A stretch of DNA of 64,000 nt from Gallionellales bacterium RIFCSPLOWO2_02_FULL_59_110 (GCA_001801215.1 MGXA01000067.1:15680-79679); one strand, 5' to 3'; counted from the first letter of the stretch, positions 4,910 through 50,250 are shown. Numbers and translations are program-made. The notes: generated by a model not told the origin, from the letters alone.

Positions 4910-4984
4910 GTCCTCGTAGTTAAATGGATATAACCGGCCCCTCCTAAGGGTCAATTACAGGTTCGATTCCTGTCGGGGACGCCA
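4910..4984 (+). tRNA. tRNA-Arg(CCT)
   Basis: 75 nt. Acceptor stem GTCCTCG/CGGGGAC, anticodon arm GGCCC-CT-CCT-AA-GGGTC, T-loop GGTTCGATTCC, encoded 3' CCA. Confidence 0.95.
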
Positions 4985-12083: not shown

Positions 12084-12251
12084 GATAACTCCCGATTGAA
12101 AAATTTCGTATCGGGTAATCTATCACTGCCGCCAAGGAATACCTATATGCAGAAATACCTATATATTCCGGCATATTGACCGGAGCGATGGGATGTGCTG
12201 CGCAACAGTAACCGGTGTTGTATCCGGAACAACGCTTTCATCGAACCCCGT

Positions 12252-12701
12252 TCACTTGCAATGCGCCTTTATTTCCTGCTGCGCTTTCTCGATACGTTGT
12301 CGGCGCTGTTCATCTTCCAGGTAGGAGCGTTCTCCCTTGGCGTCGATTTCCACCACGCGCACCCCATCCTGCAACGCGCGTAAATTCTGTTGCAAGGTGG
12401 CGCAATAGGCTTTCTCTTCTTCTGCCCTGGCCTGCTCCTGCGCTGCCTTACCGGCTTCTTCCTTTTTCGATTGCTGCGCTTTTTTCAGCTCTGCTTCGCG
12501 TTCCGCGACGGTTTTCGGTGCGTCGGGCGCACTCGCGGGAGCGGCGGCCTCCGAAGGGATACGCAGCGTCTGCGTTTGCACATTGGGGGGAGGCTGCTGA
12601 TCCGAATAATGCACCTTGCCGTCCGCGTCCACCCACTTGTTGAGCCCGGCGAAAGCGTTTGCACTGTTCAGCATTAACAAAACCAGCAGAAATCTTTTCA
12701 T
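12252..12701 (-). CDS. DUF4124 domain secreted protein
   Basis: Signal peptide, KWVDADGKVHYSDQQPP motif, Glu/Lys-rich helix. RBS GGAGAGGTGA before ATG 12701. Confidence 0.85.
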   Translation of the reverse strand: MKRFLLVLLMLNSANAFAGLNKWVDADGKVHYSDQQPPPNVQTQTLRIPSEAAAPASAPDAPKTVAEREAELKKAQQSKKEEAGKAAQEQARAEEEKAYCATLQQNLRALQDGVRVVEIDAKGERSYLEDEQRRQRIEKAQQEIKAHCK

Positions 12702-12780
12702 GGCGATCACCTCTCCGGTTTAAATCACGGTTAAGTCTAGCACACGGAGGGCAGTGGCCGCACCGTGGAGCACGCCTTGT

Positions 12781-12968
12781 CCGGTTTCTCGCATCAAACC
12801 TCCCTCAAGCCAAGCAATGCTTCGCGGTATGAATCCGAAGCAACCCCGTGGTTATTGCACCCACATTTTTCTCCTGAAAAAAATGGGTTATCGGAAACAA
12901 TCCGTCAATCTATAGCGTCAGGTGCAATCATGCCTTTACTGCGCTTCGATTTTGATGCGATTGCCCTG
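12781..12968. mobile_element. ~190-bp MITE, left copy (inverted relative to 16610-16803)
   Basis: Reverse complement aligns along its length with 16610-16803; inner TIR tttgatgcgattgccctg intact, outer TIR degenerate. Confidence 0.8.
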
Positions 12969-13232
12969 GTCACGCAACATGAGCGATTACGCACAGAGTT
13001 AATAGCGGCAAATCCGTTCTCATGCGCCGCGTTGGAGTAATGATAAGAGCGTCTAACGTAATAATCACATACTGTCAATATGCCGAAAGGCCTAGCCGAA
13101 ATACATAGGCATTTCGGCATATTGTTTCTTATCCGGAACGTTGTAACACTGCGCAGCCGGAATAAATGGCAGCGACAAGCTCCGGTACCTTTTATCTTTG
13201 CTTTTCGGATCGAATAAAAAAGGGGGTTTGAA

Positions 13233-15319
13233 ATGAATACGGAATTCAGAAACAGCATCTGCGCACTCGTCGGTATCATAGCTCTCGGCGCCAGCCCGCA
13301 ATGGGCGATGGCATCCAGCGGCAATGGAAGTAAAGGACTAAGAGTGACCGTGCCGCCGGAAAGACGGGTCGAGAGACCGCAGGTGGATATGCCCGAAAAC
13401 GTGATGACAAGCGCAATTATACAAAGGATCGAGGACAATAAGCGCCAGCCCATCAAGGATAAGGCAGGAAAGATTCAATACATCATCACGTTCGCCGATG
13501 ATGCACCAAAGAACTATGCAGCCAAGGCAATCACGGATAGCCGTTTTGCCAATTGGCACGACAGCAAAGTCATCCAACTTTTGCACGACACCGAGACCGC
13601 TCACGGTTTTTCGGCAACGCACCTTTACAGTCAGACGATGCAGGGCCTCGCCGCTTTTCTGACTCCACAACAAGCTGACAATTTAGGCCGTGACAGACGT
13701 GTCAAGCGAATGAGTCCAAATATGCCGACCGAATTGAGTGGCGGAATTTGGAGCGACACGAATCCCACCTACTATGAGACTCTGCCTTGGGGTATCCAAG
13801 CGGTAGGCGGCAACAAGGCGAGCAATGGCGCTGCCACGGTTTATGTTGGTTGATACCGGGATCGGCTATAACAGCGATTTAAACATATCCAGCCGTTGGT
13901 CCGCATCTGGCTCGTGCCTGATCGGCAACTACGCACATTCAACATTTGTCGCCGGAATCATCGGCGCCATGAATAATGGTTCCGGCGTAATCGGGGGTCG
14001 ATTCGGGTGTCAATATTGTTTCTTTGGCTTATGGCGATAATACCTGTGCCTGGGGTAGCGAAAGCACGGCAAATATGATCTCGGCTTTTGAAGAGGCGAA
14101 GGTGCGGATCAGGGCAAGCGGGCGAGTGGGCGTGGTTAATTTCTCATCCAACCCTATTGATTATTATACGAACCAAATTCCCATAACGGCAAGAGATAGT
14201 ATAAGTGGCCTGATCGCTCCCAACCCATCAACGGGTTATCCCGGCGCTTTTTTTGTCCAGTCCGCCGGCAACCACAAGACTGACGCTTGCTATCGCAGTT
14301 TTAATGACCACCTGCCGTCAGATGGTGCGATGGTCATCGGAGCAATGGACAACAACGGTCAGCCGGTTCAACCCTTGAATGACGATAACGGCTTCAACCA
14401 GGGAGGCACCATTTTTTCTTTTCCTGAACCTGGATCAAATTTCGGTGCATGCGTCGATGCATGGGCGCCTGGCAAAAAAATAAAATCCACATGGAACGAT
14501 GGCAGTAACCCGACAGGTGACGGCACCTCATTCGCTGCGCCGCATATAGCGGGAGCGGCGGCATACCTGATCGAAACGAACCCGTCTTTACAGACGCCCG
14601 CCGCTGTTGAAAATGCCGTGCGCGCCCATATGGTTTATAACGGTGCTTCCGATCTCAGTAACCTCGCTGTTGGTGCCGTCAATCTCGATGGCACCGGCCA
14701 TGTCGCCCGCCCAACGGTCGAATTCAAGATTGGCTACGCGCCATCGGATCCCGCTCCCGCGCCGATCGACGTTTATAGCGATGCGTCATTTCTTCTACGC
14801 TACGATTCTGTCGGTGCGCAGAGCTGCGATCTGTATGGCTACGTCAATGGCAATCTGTGGTATTACGTTCTGAATTTTCAGCCGAGCTACAATTGGGGTT
14901 TTGTACAATTGAACCCCGACCATTACCGGTGGGAAGTCAGTTGCCGGTCGGTAAACGGCACCATCAATACCGCCAGTGCTTCCGTCACGGTCGCGGCCAT
15001 ACCGCCGGCACCAAGCGCTGGTTTCAGCGTCAATGGCATGGCGGTCGCCAATGGCGCAACGATGAGTTTTACATACCCCCAATCCTTTTCGCTCGCGTAC
15101 GATAGCACCAATACGACTTTATGCAATTTGTATGCGTATCGCGCCGCTACCGGTGGTTTCTTGGGATATTGGTATTCAATCGACAACTTTTATCCTTCCT
15201 TTAACTGGGGTATGGTCACGCTCGACCCCGGCAATTATCGATGGTACATCGATTGTATGAATGCGAATTTCCCGGACCGTCCACATGCCACTTCGATGCT
15301 CAACATAACCGTTTTATAG
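13233..15319 (+). pseudogene. Secreted subtilisin-like S8 protease (propeptide, catalytic domain, 2 C-terminal repeats) split by two +1 frameshifts
   Basis: Pieces 13233-13853, 13825-14040 and 14024-15319. Removing one G at 13848-49 and one G at 13993-97 gives a 694-aa ORF with VVDTG, HSTFVAG, SAGN and DGTSFAAPH. Confidence 0.8.
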
Positions 15320-15383
15320 CGCGTATCCAATCGATCGTGGGTGCGATGCACCCATGATCGGCAAGTTATACACGGAGAACCTC

Positions 15384-16604
15384 ATGATGAAAAAATTCTG
15401 TTCTGGCTTACTTTTCTTTTTTGCCATATCGTTCATTGCCGCAAAAGCGCAAGCGGCAACTACGCCGTTGGAACCCTATCTTGTCGTGTCCACTGCCACG
15501 CCGCCGATAGAGGTGAGTTTCAGGTATGTGCCTTCTTCTACGGCTGCAGATTATCCAACGTTGCGCCAAGCTACGGGAAAACTGTACACCAAGGTTATTT
15601 ATTCAGAACTTTTTTTGATCGCTTACGACAATGCTTATCCACATGGCGAGGCGGGCGGGTATATTGGTATCACTTATGATTTCTCTAAGGCATTTTACAC
15701 AGGCCCGAGGGAGGGATTACCACCACCCATCGCCAACTGCGATGTGCCGTTGATACCTATTCAAGGCGTCAGCGGAACGACTTTTCCCATTACACGCTCA
15801 GTATCCATTTTGTACGGATGTGGTGGAATCACCACGCCGCCCCCACACACGGTGCCCACCTTTTTGGTTTCCTACAACGCCCCCTCGATTGTGACGGTCG
15901 CCGACGGCAACCAGATCGAAAGCGTCAACATCTCGGTTTTCAGGGATGGATTGCCCTGGACTGACTACTATTTCGGCTACCGCATCGGCCTTTTCCAATT
16001 AGCGGCAGCGCCTGCAACGGCCTCGATATTTTATGTGCCGGCATTGAACGCGCTGACCCTGCCGCCGCCGGCGGTTGAAGGCGAGGTCGTCGAATACAAC
16101 AACACCGCAGATTTCCCTTTGGCTCCGGGCGGACACTTCTTCTACAGCAGCGATGCCTTCGAACAGCAGATTGTCGATAGCGGCCAGGCCGGTCGTTTCT
16201 TACGCACCGGGCGCAGCTTCAATGCGGGCGGTTATGTGCCGGTATGCCGGTTTTACGGTAGCCAAAGCCCCGGCCCGAATTCGCATTTCTTCAGCGCCGA
16301 CCAAAACGAGTGCGCATGGCTGAAAGCGCTGCAAAAATCGCCCACCCCCGCCGATGAACAGCAATGGAACAGCGAGGGTAACGGCTTCTATACGGTGGCC
16401 GCCGTGCCCGGCGCCAACGGCAACCGCACCTGCCTGGCCGGAACCGTGCCGGTGTATCGGGCCTATAACAATGCGTTTGCGCAAGACGGAAAACGTAACG
16501 CCTGGGATTCCAACCACCGCTTTTCCACCAGCCGCGCCGATATCGACCAGTTAATTAACATGGGATGGAGCGACGAAGGTGTTGCGTTTTGCGCGCCGAA
16601 TTAG
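15384..16604 (+). CDS. Secreted protein with C-terminal DUF5648-like repeat domain
   Basis: Signal peptide; VVEYNN...HFFYSS, VPVCRFYG...NSHFFSA, EG.GF, VPVYRAYNN...NHRFST repeats. Confidence 0.7.
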   Translation: MMKKFCSGLLFFFAISFIAAKAQAATTPLEPYLVVSTATPPIEVSFRYVPSSTAADYPTLRQATGKLYTKVIYSELFLIAYDNAYPHGEAGGYIGITYDFSKAFYTGPREGLPPPIANCDVPLIPIQGVSGTTFPITRSVSILYGCGGITTPPPHTVPTFLVSYNAPSIVTVADGNQIESVNISVFRDGLPWTDYYFGYRIGLFQLAAAPATASIFYVPALNALTLPPPAVEGEVVEYNNTADFPLAPGGHFFYSSDAFEQQIVDSGQAGRFLRTGRSFNAGGYVPVCRFYGSQSPGPNSHFFSADQNECAWLKALQKSPTPADEQQWNSEGNGFYTVAAVPGANGNRTCLAGTVPVYRAYNNAFAQDGKRNAWDSNHRFSTSRADIDQLINMGWSDEGVAFCAPN

Positions 16605-16609
16605 CCTAT

Positions 16610-16803
16610 CAGGACAATCGCATCAAAATCGAAGCGCAGTGAAGGCATGAATCGCATCTGACGCTATAAATTGACGGATTGTTTCCGATAACCCATTTTT
16701 TTCAGGAGAAAAATGTGGGTGCAATAACTACGTGGTTGCTTCGGATTCATATCGTGATGCGTTGCTTGGCTTGGCTTGGGAGAGATTTGATGCGATTGCC
16801 CTG
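16610..16803. mobile_element. 194-bp MITE, right copy, with own 18-bp TIRs
   Basis: caggacaatcgcatcaaa (16610-27) and tttgatgcgattgccctg (16786-803), 17/18 complementary. Confidence 0.82.
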
Positions 16804-16891
16804 ACGCCTTGTCCGGGGTTCTCGCCCGCCCGGGCCGCAAAGTTGTATGGTATCTTGCGCATATCCGTTTGTACGTTGCCTTCCCGATGCC

Positions 16892-17869
16892 ATGAGCCTG
16901 TTTGCCCTGATCGCCGCGCTGTTGCTGGAGCAGATCCAGCCTCTCTCTTCGCGCAAATACCTGCATGGCTGGCTGTCCGATTACGTCGGTTTCTTTCAGC
17001 ATCATTTCAATGCCGGACATCACAAACACGGCAAAATCGCCTGGCTGCTGGCGGTGATGCCGCTGCTGGCAGCCGTGGTGGCGCTGTACTGGCTGCTGTG
17101 CGGCGTACACCCGGTGTTTGCCTGGGCGTTCAACGTGCTGGTGCTGTATCTCACCATGGGCTTCCGCCAGTTCAGCCACTATTTCACCGACATTCACCAT
17201 GCGTTGCGCAACGGCAAACTGGACGAGGCGCGCGGGCTGCTGACCAGGTGGCGCGGCATTCCTTCGCACGAGCTGAATGCCGAAGAAGTGGCGCGCGTAT
17301 CCATCGAAGAGGCGCTGATCGCATCGCACCGCAACGTGTTCGGCGTGATCGTGTGGTTCGTGCTGTTCGGCGCGGTCGGCCTGGGCGGTGCGGCGGGCGC
17401 GCTGTTGTATCGCCTCGGGCAGTTCCTGCGCAAGCGCTGGGGCGACGAGGACGAGGCCGCCGAACCGGATTATTTGCCGAACAAGGATTGGGGCGGCGGA
17501 GAATTCGGCGGCTTCGCACGACAGGCGTTCTACGTGCTGGAATGGCTGCCGATCCGCATGACCGCGATGACCTTCGCCATCGTCGGCAACTTCGAGGATA
17601 CGGCATATTGCTGGCGCACCCAGGCGGCGAGCTGGCCCGATCCCGAAGCGGGAATCCTGCTGGCCAGCGGAGCGGGGGCGCTGGGCGTGCGTCTCGGCAT
17701 GCCGATCCCGCAAGGCGGCCTGCCGCTGGGCAGGCCCGAACTGGGCATCGGCATCGGCGACGATGCAGATGCCGACTTCATGCGCAGCACAATCGGGCTG
17801 GTGTGGCGCTCGGTGGTGTTCTGGCTGCTCCTCTTGTTGCTGCTGACGCTGGCGAGCCTGCTCGGCTAG
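16892..17869 (+). CDS. CobD/CbiB (AmpE-like) family membrane protein
   Basis: MSLFALIAALLLEQ, GFRQFSHYFTDI, RNVFGVIVWF, AIVGNFED, LVWRSVVFW. Confidence 0.8.
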   Translation: MSLFALIAALLLEQIQPLSSRKYLHGWLSDYVGFFQHHFNAGHHKHGKIAWLLAVMPLLAAVVALYWLLCGVHPVFAWAFNVLVLYLTMGFRQFSHYFTDIHHALRNGKLDEARGLLTRWRGIPSHELNAEEVARVSIEEALIASHRNVFGVIVWFVLFGAVGLGGAAGALLYRLGQFLRKRWGDEDEAAEPDYLPNKDWGGGEFGGFARQAFYVLEWLPIRMTAMTFAIVGNFEDTAYCWRTQAASWPDPEAGILLASGAGALGVRLGMPIPQGGLPLGRPELGIGIGDDADADFMRSTIGLVWRSVVFWLLLLLLLTLASLLG

Positions 17870-18692: not shown

Positions 18693-18797
18693 GCTGGATT
18701 TAAGCGGGCCGGGGCAGCACATGCCCCGTTTCATTGCGATGGTTACGCAGTCCAAGGGTATAGCTGTAGCCGGGTAGTTCATGCGGCAGATTACTTA

Positions 18798-18907
18798 AGG
18801 ACGCGCTGATTTATTCGGTTTCGTCGTTCCCGCGAAGGCGGGAACCCAGTTAAGTAAAGGCACTGGATCCCCGCCTTCGCGGGGATGACGAATAAATCAG
18901 CGCCTCC
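18798..18907. mobile_element. 110-bp MITE, copy 1
   Basis: TIRs (a/g)ggacgcgctgatttattcg and cgaataaatcagcgcctcc, flanked by TTA/TTA; identical to 37806 and 50141 copies except the first base. Confidence 0.88.
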
Positions 18908-18985
18908 TTAAAGGCTTGTAACTACTCAGGTCGAAATGACGATACTCACGGAAGCACCACAACACCAGTCCCCTCTCCCGCCTGC

Positions 18986-37805: not shown

Positions 37806-37915
37806 GGGACGCGCTGATTTATTCGGTTTCGTCGTTCCCGCGAAGGCGGGAACCCAGTTAAGTAAAGGCACTGGATCCCCGCCTTCGCGGGGATGACGAA
37901 TAAATCAGCGCCTCC
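37806..37915. mobile_element. 110-bp MITE, copy 2
   Basis: Same sequence as 18798-18907; flanked by TGA/TGA. Confidence 0.88.
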
Positions 37916-38006
37916 TGAGACGTTCGGCCATAACCTGAGGTTGCTCCATGAGGCAGATGGAGCATGGAACTATCCTGCGGGAAACCACATAAATGATGCG
38001 ATGGCA

Positions 38007-50070: not shown

Positions 50071-50140
50071 CGTCGCAAATCGCAAATCTCAAAGCATCGT
50101 TCCCATGCTCCGCGTGGGAACGCTGGCCGTGCCGCTCTAA

Positions 50141-50250
50141 GGAGGCGCTGATTTATTCGTCATCCCCGCGAAGGCGGGGATCCAGTGCCTTTACTTAACT
50201 GGGTTCCCGCCTTCGCGGGAACGACGAAACCGAATAAATCAGCGCGTCCC
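50141..50250. mobile_element. 110-bp MITE, copy 3 (reverse orientation)
   Basis: Reverse complement of 37806-37915; flanks TAA/TCA. Confidence 0.88.

Follow-up and report, generated by a model that had tools for sequence, protein, structure and literature searches.

A probable relic of a composite transposon bounded by miniature inverted-repeat elements upstream of cobD in Gallionellales

The inverted MITE pair and its ISAs1 ancestry

The stretch of DNA analysed here (the window) covers 64,000 nucleotides (nt) of Gallionellales bacterium RIFCSPLOWO2_02_FULL_59_110 (GCA_001801215.1 MGXA01000067.1:15680-79679), whose source population is groundwater Gallionellaceae. Between a DUF4124 gene on the left and cobD on the right, it contains a 3.6-kb segment of lower GC content bracketed by an inverted pair of transposable elements of the miniature inverted-repeat type (MITEs) at 12789-12968 and 16610-16803. 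We refer to the pair together with the DNA that it encloses as the cassette. An earlier note, made from the sequence alone, had described the enclosed cargo as AT-richer than its surroundings, and the GC content is indeed 0.47-0.55 inside the MITE pair versus 0.58-0.70 in the flanks. The cargo comprises a non-coding leader (12969..13232, plus strand) that includes a strong hairpin at 13077-13124, a pseudogene of a subtilase of the S8 peptidases (13233..15319, plus strand) and an intact gene for a secreted DUF5648 protein (15384..16604, plus strand).

The right MITE (16610..16803, plus strand) is complete, measures 194 bp and has its transposase sense pointing outward, toward cobD. It starts with a left-type inverted repeat (IRL), CAGGACAATCGCATCAAA, at 16610-16627 and ends with a right-type inverted repeat (IRR), TTTGATGCGATTGCCCTG, at 16786-16803; these two terminal repeats, which the earlier note had seen to be 18 bp each, differ by one mismatch. 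Three occurrences of the 18-mer are present in the window, where chance would give 0.08. Between the terminal repeats lie a 33-nt block conserved in all family members seen (16664-16696), a ribosome binding site (RBS) AGGAGA (16704-16709), the ATG of a transposase gene (16713-16715), an internal-deletion junction at 16740/16741, where GTTGCT meets TCGGAT, and transposase C-terminal codons up to 16785. The left MITE (12789..12968, minus strand) is a 180-nt inverted copy, about 90% identical to the right one, with its transposase sense toward DUF4124. Its inner, IRL-type terminal repeat is intact (12951-12968), and its outer, IRR-type end is devoid of the 8-nt tip CAGGGCAA, homology beginning at 12789 with TCGC. 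The left copy had been thought to start at 12781; the pair itself and its long exact core stand, while the start moves to 12789, as 12781-12788 belong to a direct repeat described below. A repeat finder split the pair into three arms, 12806-12928/16651-16773 (123 nt, 93%), 12928-12968/16610-16650 (41 nt, 95%) and 12789-12825/16759-16795 (81%), and in the pairwise alignment the exact core is 59 nt long, with 12851-12909 being the reverse complement of 16670-16728. The deletion junction is identical in the two window copies, indicating that both descend from one ancestral MITE. Neither copy, at 194 and 180 bp, holds a transposase open reading frame (ORF).

A direct repeat is found outside the pair, in agreement with the earlier description. 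Its left copy, ACGCCTTGTCCGGTTTCTCGC, is 21 nt long (12772..12792) and shares its last 4 nt, TCGC (12789-12792), with the MITE, and its right copy, ACGCCTTGTCCGGGGTTCTCGC, is 22 nt long (16804..16825) and lies flush with the right MITE tip. The two copies differ as T versus GG. This repeat is unique in the 64 kb, where 0.01 chance matches are expected, was absent from all other fetched loci outside the assemblies of this very locus, and was not found elsewhere by an exact-pattern scan. The first 10 nt of the left copy correspond to the length of the canonical target duplication of the family (see below). The right MITE has no target duplication of its own, as its flanks ATTAGCCTAT and ACGCCTTGTC differ at 9 of 10 positions, and the outer flank of the left MITE cannot be scored for a duplication owing to the missing tip.

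The earlier note had not recognised the MITE family; both the terminal repeat and the interior assign it to ISAs1. We scanned one genome per species for the terminal repeat CAGGNCAATCGCATCAAA and found the exact 18-mer in at least 120 loci (L006-L125) of many phyla, including Chloroflexota, Bacteroidota, several proteobacterial classes, Cyanobacteria, Planctomycetota and Firmicutes, among others. In three of these loci (L009, L027 and L071), CAGGNCAATCGCATCAAA bounds elements of 1.2-1.3 kb that encode transposases with DDE_Tnp_1_assoc and DDE_Tnp_1 domains, and L006 contains a 1.2-kb element with the same ends and a broken transposase. The element of L009 (Aromatoleum) is 1298 bp long, and its 383-aa ORF scores 387 bits on NF033564 (ISAs1 family transposase; cutoff 70). 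Among the matches listed, 60 pairs of ends face each other, 9 of them spaced by 1.2-1.8 kb, the size of an insertion sequence (IS), and 51 by 145-750 bp, the size of a MITE. Target duplications in this terminal-repeat family measure 9-10 bp; they are exact in 22 of the 60 listed elements, have at most two mismatches in 40, and none is longer. Some MITE sizes recur among the matches listed, for example 193 bp and 256-267 bp. The scan suggests that ISAs1-derived MITE families are widespread and largely undescribed.

The interior of the MITE leads to the same family. Its leader half (B-half, beside 16610) recurs in L093, from a Gallionellales metagenome-assembled genome (MAG), and in the metagenome contig L144, continuing there into transposase N-terminal codons, and its A-half recurs in L028, from a Nitrosomonadales MAG, continuing into a transposase C-terminus at 68% amino acid identity. 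The MITE retains the leader and the first 9 transposase codons fused to the last ~27 codons. A tblastn search of the window, with an ISAs1 transposase as query, yielded nothing beyond a remnant of ~28 aa (E 0.33); in the left MITE, a weak remnant of the transposase C-terminus lies at 12877-12803. Judged by these sequence matches, the MITE pair is a recognisable derivative of the ISAs1 family. An odd end of L093, CAGCGCATCAAA, was considered as a conserved alternative end and discarded, being a 6-nt deletion in a degenerate remnant. The earlier note had proposed a search for other copies of the MITE and other cargos. In JGI metagenomes, the 25-nt MITE core matched two other loci, L144 and L143, and the contig of the latter is that of the GTDB locus L093; L093 and L144 are remnants without cargo, and the scan yielded no other cargo associated with this MITE.

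Cargo decay, presence in other assemblies and copy number

The earlier note had described the cargo as a secreted S8 protease and a DUF5648-like protein lying between two divergent host-like genes. The content and the context are correct, and the protease is not intact. The pseudogene, which carries Inhibitor_I9 and Peptidase_S8 domains (Pfam), is split over three frames: the signal peptide and the I9 propeptide are encoded in the first (13233-13853), the catalytic Asp (DTG) and His (HSTFVAG) in the second (to ~13997), and the catalytic Ser (GTSFAAPH) with two C-terminal repeat domains in the third (to 15319). Comparison with the intact homolog in L126 (701 aa), by tblastn and by alignment of the nucleotide sequences, placed the two responsible +1 frameshifts at an extra T (13846/13847) and at an extra G in a G-run (13993-13997). 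Since they put the propeptide, Asp/His and Ser segments into three different frames, the gene is a pseudogene, and the proposal that an extracellular proteolysis module was delivered here does not hold for the sequence as it stands. Homologs of the subtilase are 701-718 aa long, with an S8 domain that is preceded by a signal peptide and an I9 propeptide and followed by two C-terminal repeats. In the lineage of L132-134 (L132 5862-7937), the subtilase is interrupted by an in-frame stop, located after the propeptide and before the catalytic domain, where GGIW has its Trp; the gene has been inactivated independently in two lineages, and the adjacent DUF5648 gene is open in both.

The DUF5648 gene encodes a 406-aa protein with a signal peptide, an all-beta N-terminal part and a C-terminal DUF5648 domain (Pfam PF18885). 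Its homologs at 60-76% identity are always beside an S8 gene, and among homologs the DUF5648 domain is found fused to various secreted enzymes, for example lysyl endopeptidase and S41 peptidase. A confident AlphaFold model of the protein (pLDDT 83.7, pTM 0.83) had no detectable neighbour in the PDB, the best Foldseek match having an E value of 0.1 and a TM below 0.2, and the structure gave no indication of a function.

The S8 and DUF5648 genes occur together at 69-77% nt identity in three unrelated contexts, beside comF-like and msh-type pilus genes (L126-128), beside Tim44-like and HD-domain genes (L132-134), and beside a DDE_Tnp_1_4 transposase and a recombinase fragment (L129-131). ISAs1 terminal repeats and MITEs are absent from all three. 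The lower GC content and the presence of the same two-gene module in three other contexts without MITEs show that the cargo is foreign to the host chromosome. The cassette holds no integrase or recombinase among its ORFs and Pfam matches.

The locus is also present in three further assemblies, L001 (GCA_036779215.1), L135 (GCA_001801255.1) and L136 (GCA_001802325.1), in which both junctions and the cassette are reproduced base for base; L135 shows zero differences from the window within the cassette. Logan unitigs from several metagenome runs cover 3.2-3.4 kb of the cargo with 0 differences and reproduce both junctions. The left direct repeat is identical in the three assemblies and in the unitigs (loose end CGCACCGTGGAGCACGCCTTGTCCGGTTTC), and both +1 frameshifts of the subtilase are found in all four assemblies and in the unitigs. 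As three further assemblies and the unitigs reproduce them, the cassette and its frameshifts are not an assembly artefact, and the cassette is fixed in all the samples available. The orientation of the cargo is the same in the four assemblies, and the unitigs are blind to inversion.

A unitig of the 57-nt MITE core has a depth of 148 against 64-72 for the genome, corresponding to about two copies per genome, therefore essentially only the two copies at the cassette locus. Other unitigs run from the MITE A-half into transposase coding sequence, with depths of 152.8, 15.2, 14.3 and 3.9 in four runs, roughly tracking the genome; one unitig reaches C-terminal transposase codons. A longer, possibly autonomous ISAs1 copy is probably present, either in the same genome or in a co-varying one of the community, and might supply transposase in trans. 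We also compared the Logan runs X1, X3, X4, X6 and X16 with window 16540-16880 and L028 4400-4656 and observed two further complete A-ends with other flanks and a genome-like depth, GCGGGGAAATACGCAAGGATGGGGGCGGGC joined to CAG... and ...CCCTG joined to ACATTGGCCCTTTGGG (also ...CCCTG joined to ACATTGGCCCTTTGGGCCCC).

Origin of the cassette

Our favoured reading, with a probability of about 0.6, is that this region preserves what is left of a composite transposon bounded by MITEs. The earlier note had suggested a non-autonomous composite element; the whole-unit signature, true MITEs and foreign cargo speak for this, while the repeat is not a canonical duplication and the left tip is missing. 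Insertion of the pair and its cargo as a single unit is the most likely course, because the lack of individual duplications, the shared outer repeat, the foreign composition and the patchy cargo make up the classical signature of a composite. The missing duplication at the right MITE is what would be expected if the pair moved as one unit. In this scenario, an ISAs1-family IS of Gallionellales would have lost nearly its whole transposase gene by a single internal deletion, giving rise to a 194-bp MITE that retained the IRL, the 5' leader with RBS and ATG, 9 codons, the last ~27 codons and the IRR. Two descendants of this MITE would have come to flank a mobile module of secreted subtilase and DUF5648 protein, in inverted orientation with the IRR ends outward. 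An ISAs1 transposase acting in trans would then have used both outer ends and inserted the unit, 4.0 kb in all, at the DUF4124-cobD junction, with duplication of the target ACGCCTTGTC.

The left junction calls for an additional step. A canonical insertion would read ACGCCTTGTC followed directly by CAGGGCAATCGCATCAAA on the left, and the actual sequence is ACGCCTTGTC-CGGTTTC-TCGCATCAAA; in place of the 8-nt tip stand 7 nt that match the sequence following the right-hand duplication (CGGGGTTC). We suppose that, after insertion, the tip was replaced by a copy of that sequence, through short conversion or templated repair between the homeologous stretches of ~22 bp, which we favour, or through a microhomology joint at TCGC. 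Such a replacement would have lengthened the repeat to 21/22 bp and crippled the left end, and the subtilase would subsequently have gained its two +1 frameshifts. Without the tip of the left outer terminal repeat, mobilisation of the unit from its outer ends is probably no longer feasible. At 16814-16825, CGGGGTTCTCGC agrees with the terminal-repeat tip CAGGGCAATCGC in 8 of 12 positions and has TCGC in register with it (background probability of at least 8 matches, 0.0056). Target mimicry was rejected as a trait of the family, the flanks of 29 well-duplicated family insertions being no more tip-like than background, and the match is at most a local facilitator.

Several observations weigh against a composite insertion. 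The direct repeat measures 21/22 bp and not 9-10 bp, so it is no canonical target duplication, and the terminal repeat of the left outer end is damaged, which leaves the canonical signature incomplete; an extra event must be postulated because the left end is truncated and the repeat overlong. The two MITEs have diverged by ~10%, more than is usual for a recently formed composite. No canonical insertion of the MITE family of the window was seen, and the family has a very low copy number. A transposase with matching ends, which the earlier note had suggested searching for, is not encoded in the 64-kb window, and the longer ISAs1 unitigs mentioned above are assigned to the cassette genome by depth alone. 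An empty DUF4124-cobD junction, also proposed in the earlier note as a check, was found neither in relatives nor in metagenomes. In the relatives at 88-90% nt identity in cobD (P0003 and P0004), the gene order is cysDN-cobD-ABC, which is not syntenic, with homology starting at ~16881 and with neither MITE nor cargo beside cysDN-cobD, and relatives identified through DUF4124 (76-77% aa) have a different, likewise non-syntenic neighbourhood. An empty site would read GAGC-ACGCCTTGTCCGG[T/GG]TTCTCGC-CCGCCC. An exact-pattern search of JGI metagenomes for the expected junction gave 0 matches, and 12 metagenome runs contained no joint skipping the cassette. Runs with only diverged flanks (X8-X10, X13 and X16) had no cargo, and their contigs diverge just past the DUF4124 start, which makes them uninformative on the junction. 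An allele with an intact left end, or a second copy of the composite, was not encountered in these searches either.

The cassette could instead have been imported by homology-facilitated illegitimate recombination from a donor that already carried MITE-cargo-MITE upstream of cobD, with a homologous crossover in cobD on the right and an illegitimate TCGC joint between recipient intergenic sequence and the donor left MITE. The 21 bp between the donor MITE insertion point and the joint would thereby have been duplicated and the tip clipped in the same event, so that a single event accounts for the loss of the tip, for the overlap at TCGC and for the T/GG difference, the latter read as a difference between the alleles of recipient and donor. 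The Gallionellaceae populations are found together in the same groundwater samples, and cobD, the only gene near the cassette that is common to the 88-90% relatives, has many strain variants in the unitigs. We nevertheless judge such an import rather improbable: the donor configuration was not found, cysDN-cobD of the relatives being accompanied by neither MITE nor cargo, the donor itself must still have received a composite or a MITE at an earlier time, and a local patch fits better with a replacement that nearly preserves length (7 for 8 nt) and with the same register of TCGC in the flank and in the terminal repeat. Less probable still are two independent MITE insertions around a gene pair that was resident or had arrived otherwise, the direct repeat then being unrelated to the MITEs. 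The ~10% divergence of the copies would agree with insertions at separate times, and solitary MITEs with these ends are common (51 of the 60 listed paired ends are MITE-sized). However, the right MITE has no duplication (9/10 mismatches), although two thirds of the listed family members retain one, and the direct repeat, which is unique in the window (0.01 matches expected by chance), begins immediately at the right tip and extends into the left copy. Duplications swapped by an inversion between the copies were also considered and rejected, as reverse-complementing the inner flanks gives no match to the outer ones (GTCACGCAAC / ATTAGCCTAT versus ACGCCTTGTC, by eye).

As att sites typically show direct repeats of ~20 bp at the two borders, and as in one other lineage the cargo adjoins a recombinase fragment (L129/L130), a small integrative island moved by a site-specific recombinase in trans might be considered, with the 21/22-bp repeat as att core and the MITEs as passengers. 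An att-type site is unlikely here, and we give the island as a whole very little credence: integrase and recombinase genes are missing from the cassette, the insertion lies outside any tRNA or tmRNA gene (the only tRNA lies at 4910), the direct repeat is found nowhere else, and the borders coincide with the MITE outer ends to the base, a coincidence on this model. We find it just as hard to believe that the inverted pair now serves as an invertible device, flipping through its 59-nt cores, or as a regulatory one, with its leaders driving DUF4124 and cobD. An exact 59-nt core within copies ~10% diverged could reflect ongoing exchange, the transposase-sense leaders of both MITEs face the flanking genes, and TIMEs have been reported with functional outward promoters (PMC4133298). 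However, the 33-nt block at 16664-16696, which makes up most of the core, is equally conserved in L093 and L144, so that constraint on the IS leader explains that part; a consensus scan gave no sigma-70-like promoter in either MITE, all four assemblies have one orientation, and cobD retains its own conserved upstream box.

Returning to the MITE-bounded composite, such elements are known from other bacteria. Two of them, TIME-COMP1 and TIME-COMP2, transpose experimentally (PMC4133298; PMC13367494), and MITE pairs also flank integrons (PMC3934969; review PMC10969869). Like the cassette, TIME-COMPs (Szuplewska et al. 2014, PMC4133298; PMC13367494) consist of two copies of one MITE, direct or inverted and not necessarily identical, around a cargo without transposition genes, and have a GC content below that of their surroundings. 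They are mobilised in trans by the transposase of the parent element, which by analogy we presume for the cassette. The parent here is an ISAs1 element (DDE, 10-bp duplication), whereas TIME-COMPs contain Tn3-derived MITEs (5-bp duplication); the cassette also differs from them in its truncated left outer end, in its direct repeat of 21/22 bp and in its cargo, a decaying secreted-protein module as opposed to a resolvase, replication or resistance module. For TIME-COMPs mobility has been shown by experiment; for the cassette it is presumed from the sequence. The 439-bp MITE pairs at class 1 integrons of Acinetobacter (PMC3934969; PMC10969869) likewise place identical or similar MITEs at both ends of a mobilised segment, with an outer direct repeat taken as evidence of unit insertion. 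In contrast to the cassette, which occupies a single fixed chromosomal locus in an environmental iron-oxidiser lineage and has a non-canonical repeat, they carry resistance integrons on plasmids or chromosomes of clinical bacteria and are recurrent, both across several loci and across several species.

The ISAs1-family IS themselves (NF033564; e.g. ISPmar4, PMC3281130) have terminal repeats starting with CAGGG, as here, and a family duplication of 9-10 bp. These parents are 1.2-1.3 kb long with a single DDE transposase (DDE_Tnp_1_assoc and DDE_Tnp_1), unlike the window copies, which have lost the transposase except for 9 N-terminal and ~27 C-terminal codons and number about two per genome. The arrangement also resembles that of the IS-bounded composites Tn5 and Tn10, with inverted terminal modules, use of the outer ends, no duplication per module and one duplication outside the pair, and differs from it in that the terminal modules encode no transposase, hence a full dependence on a copy elsewhere in the cell. 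The cassette is a fossil of a known kind of mobile element, as represented by TIME-COMPs and MITE-flanked integrons, and not a new one. A fixed fossil, probably immobile, is the best description of it, given the clipped outer end, the dead protease and a sequence that does not vary between samples.

The cassette adds an environmental, non-resistance case to the short list of MITE-bounded composites and links their architecture with ISAs1, a family that has received little study. It also illustrates how a secreted module of two genes spreads patchily through Gallionellaceae and related bacteria and decays afterwards. For annotation, the lesson is that the protease at this locus is a pseudogene in a cassette that is probably fixed and immobile. 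The value of the case is descriptive; it brings no new mechanism and answers no open question. In a bolder version, which we regard as doubtful, it would be the first described composite of ISAs1-derived MITEs, in which a left tip lying near a tip-like target (8/12) was overwritten by a patch from the other flank, turning the 10-bp duplication into the 21/22-bp repeat and locking the cargo in place, with the outward leaders perhaps kept as promoters for DUF4124 and cobD.

Flanking genes and dispersed elements

The DUF4124 gene (12252..12710, minus strand; Pfam PF13511, E 8e-11) encodes a product with a signal peptide, is divergent from the cassette, and has Gallionellaceae proteins as its homologs. 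On the other side, cobD (16892..17869, plus strand) belongs to the CobD/CbiB family (Pfam and NCBIfam NF005792, 403 bits) and is preceded by a conserved box, TGGTATCTT (~16846-16856), located downstream of the right direct repeat. The alignment of relatives to the window begins at ~16881 and runs onward through cobD, which in the 88-90% relatives lies between cysDN and an ABC transporter. A 21-bp in-frame indel distinguishes cobD of the window from that of L001 (17067-17087 and 17190-17580 being notable), and the metagenome unitigs over cobD include, besides the strain variants, length-variant joints. Each MITE retains the transposase leader (conserved block, RBS AGGAGA and ATG) reading outward into DUF4124 (minus strand) or cobD (plus strand). 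A consensus scan for sigma-70 promoters and terminators gave no promoter-like site in either MITE, with overall counts at the level of shuffled sequence, and Rfam at gathering thresholds detected nothing in the MITEs or the cassette, its only match being the tRNA at 4910, 8 kb off.

The hairpin at 13077-13124 in the cargo leader has perfect arms of 13 bp (CAATATGCCGAAA / TTTCGGCATATTG) and a predicted fold of -27 kcal/mol (z -5.1). It is conserved upstream of the module elsewhere (L126 2212-2315, L132 5224-5251), and a half-copy is found in the window at 12149-12178. Its unitig depth is 461 against a baseline of 72, ~6x the genome. This hairpin may be a dispersed palindromic element or an operator or terminator. 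Finally, the window contains a second, unrelated MITE-like family of ~113 bp, with three identical copies at ~18795-18910, 37807-37916 and 50135-50249 (minus strand), terminal inverted repeats of about GGAGGCGCTGATTTATTCG and internal GC-rich hairpins CCCGCGAAGGCGGG. It is also present in a relative with 90% identity in cobD (L005 4378-4448, 80% identity), and it looks recently active.

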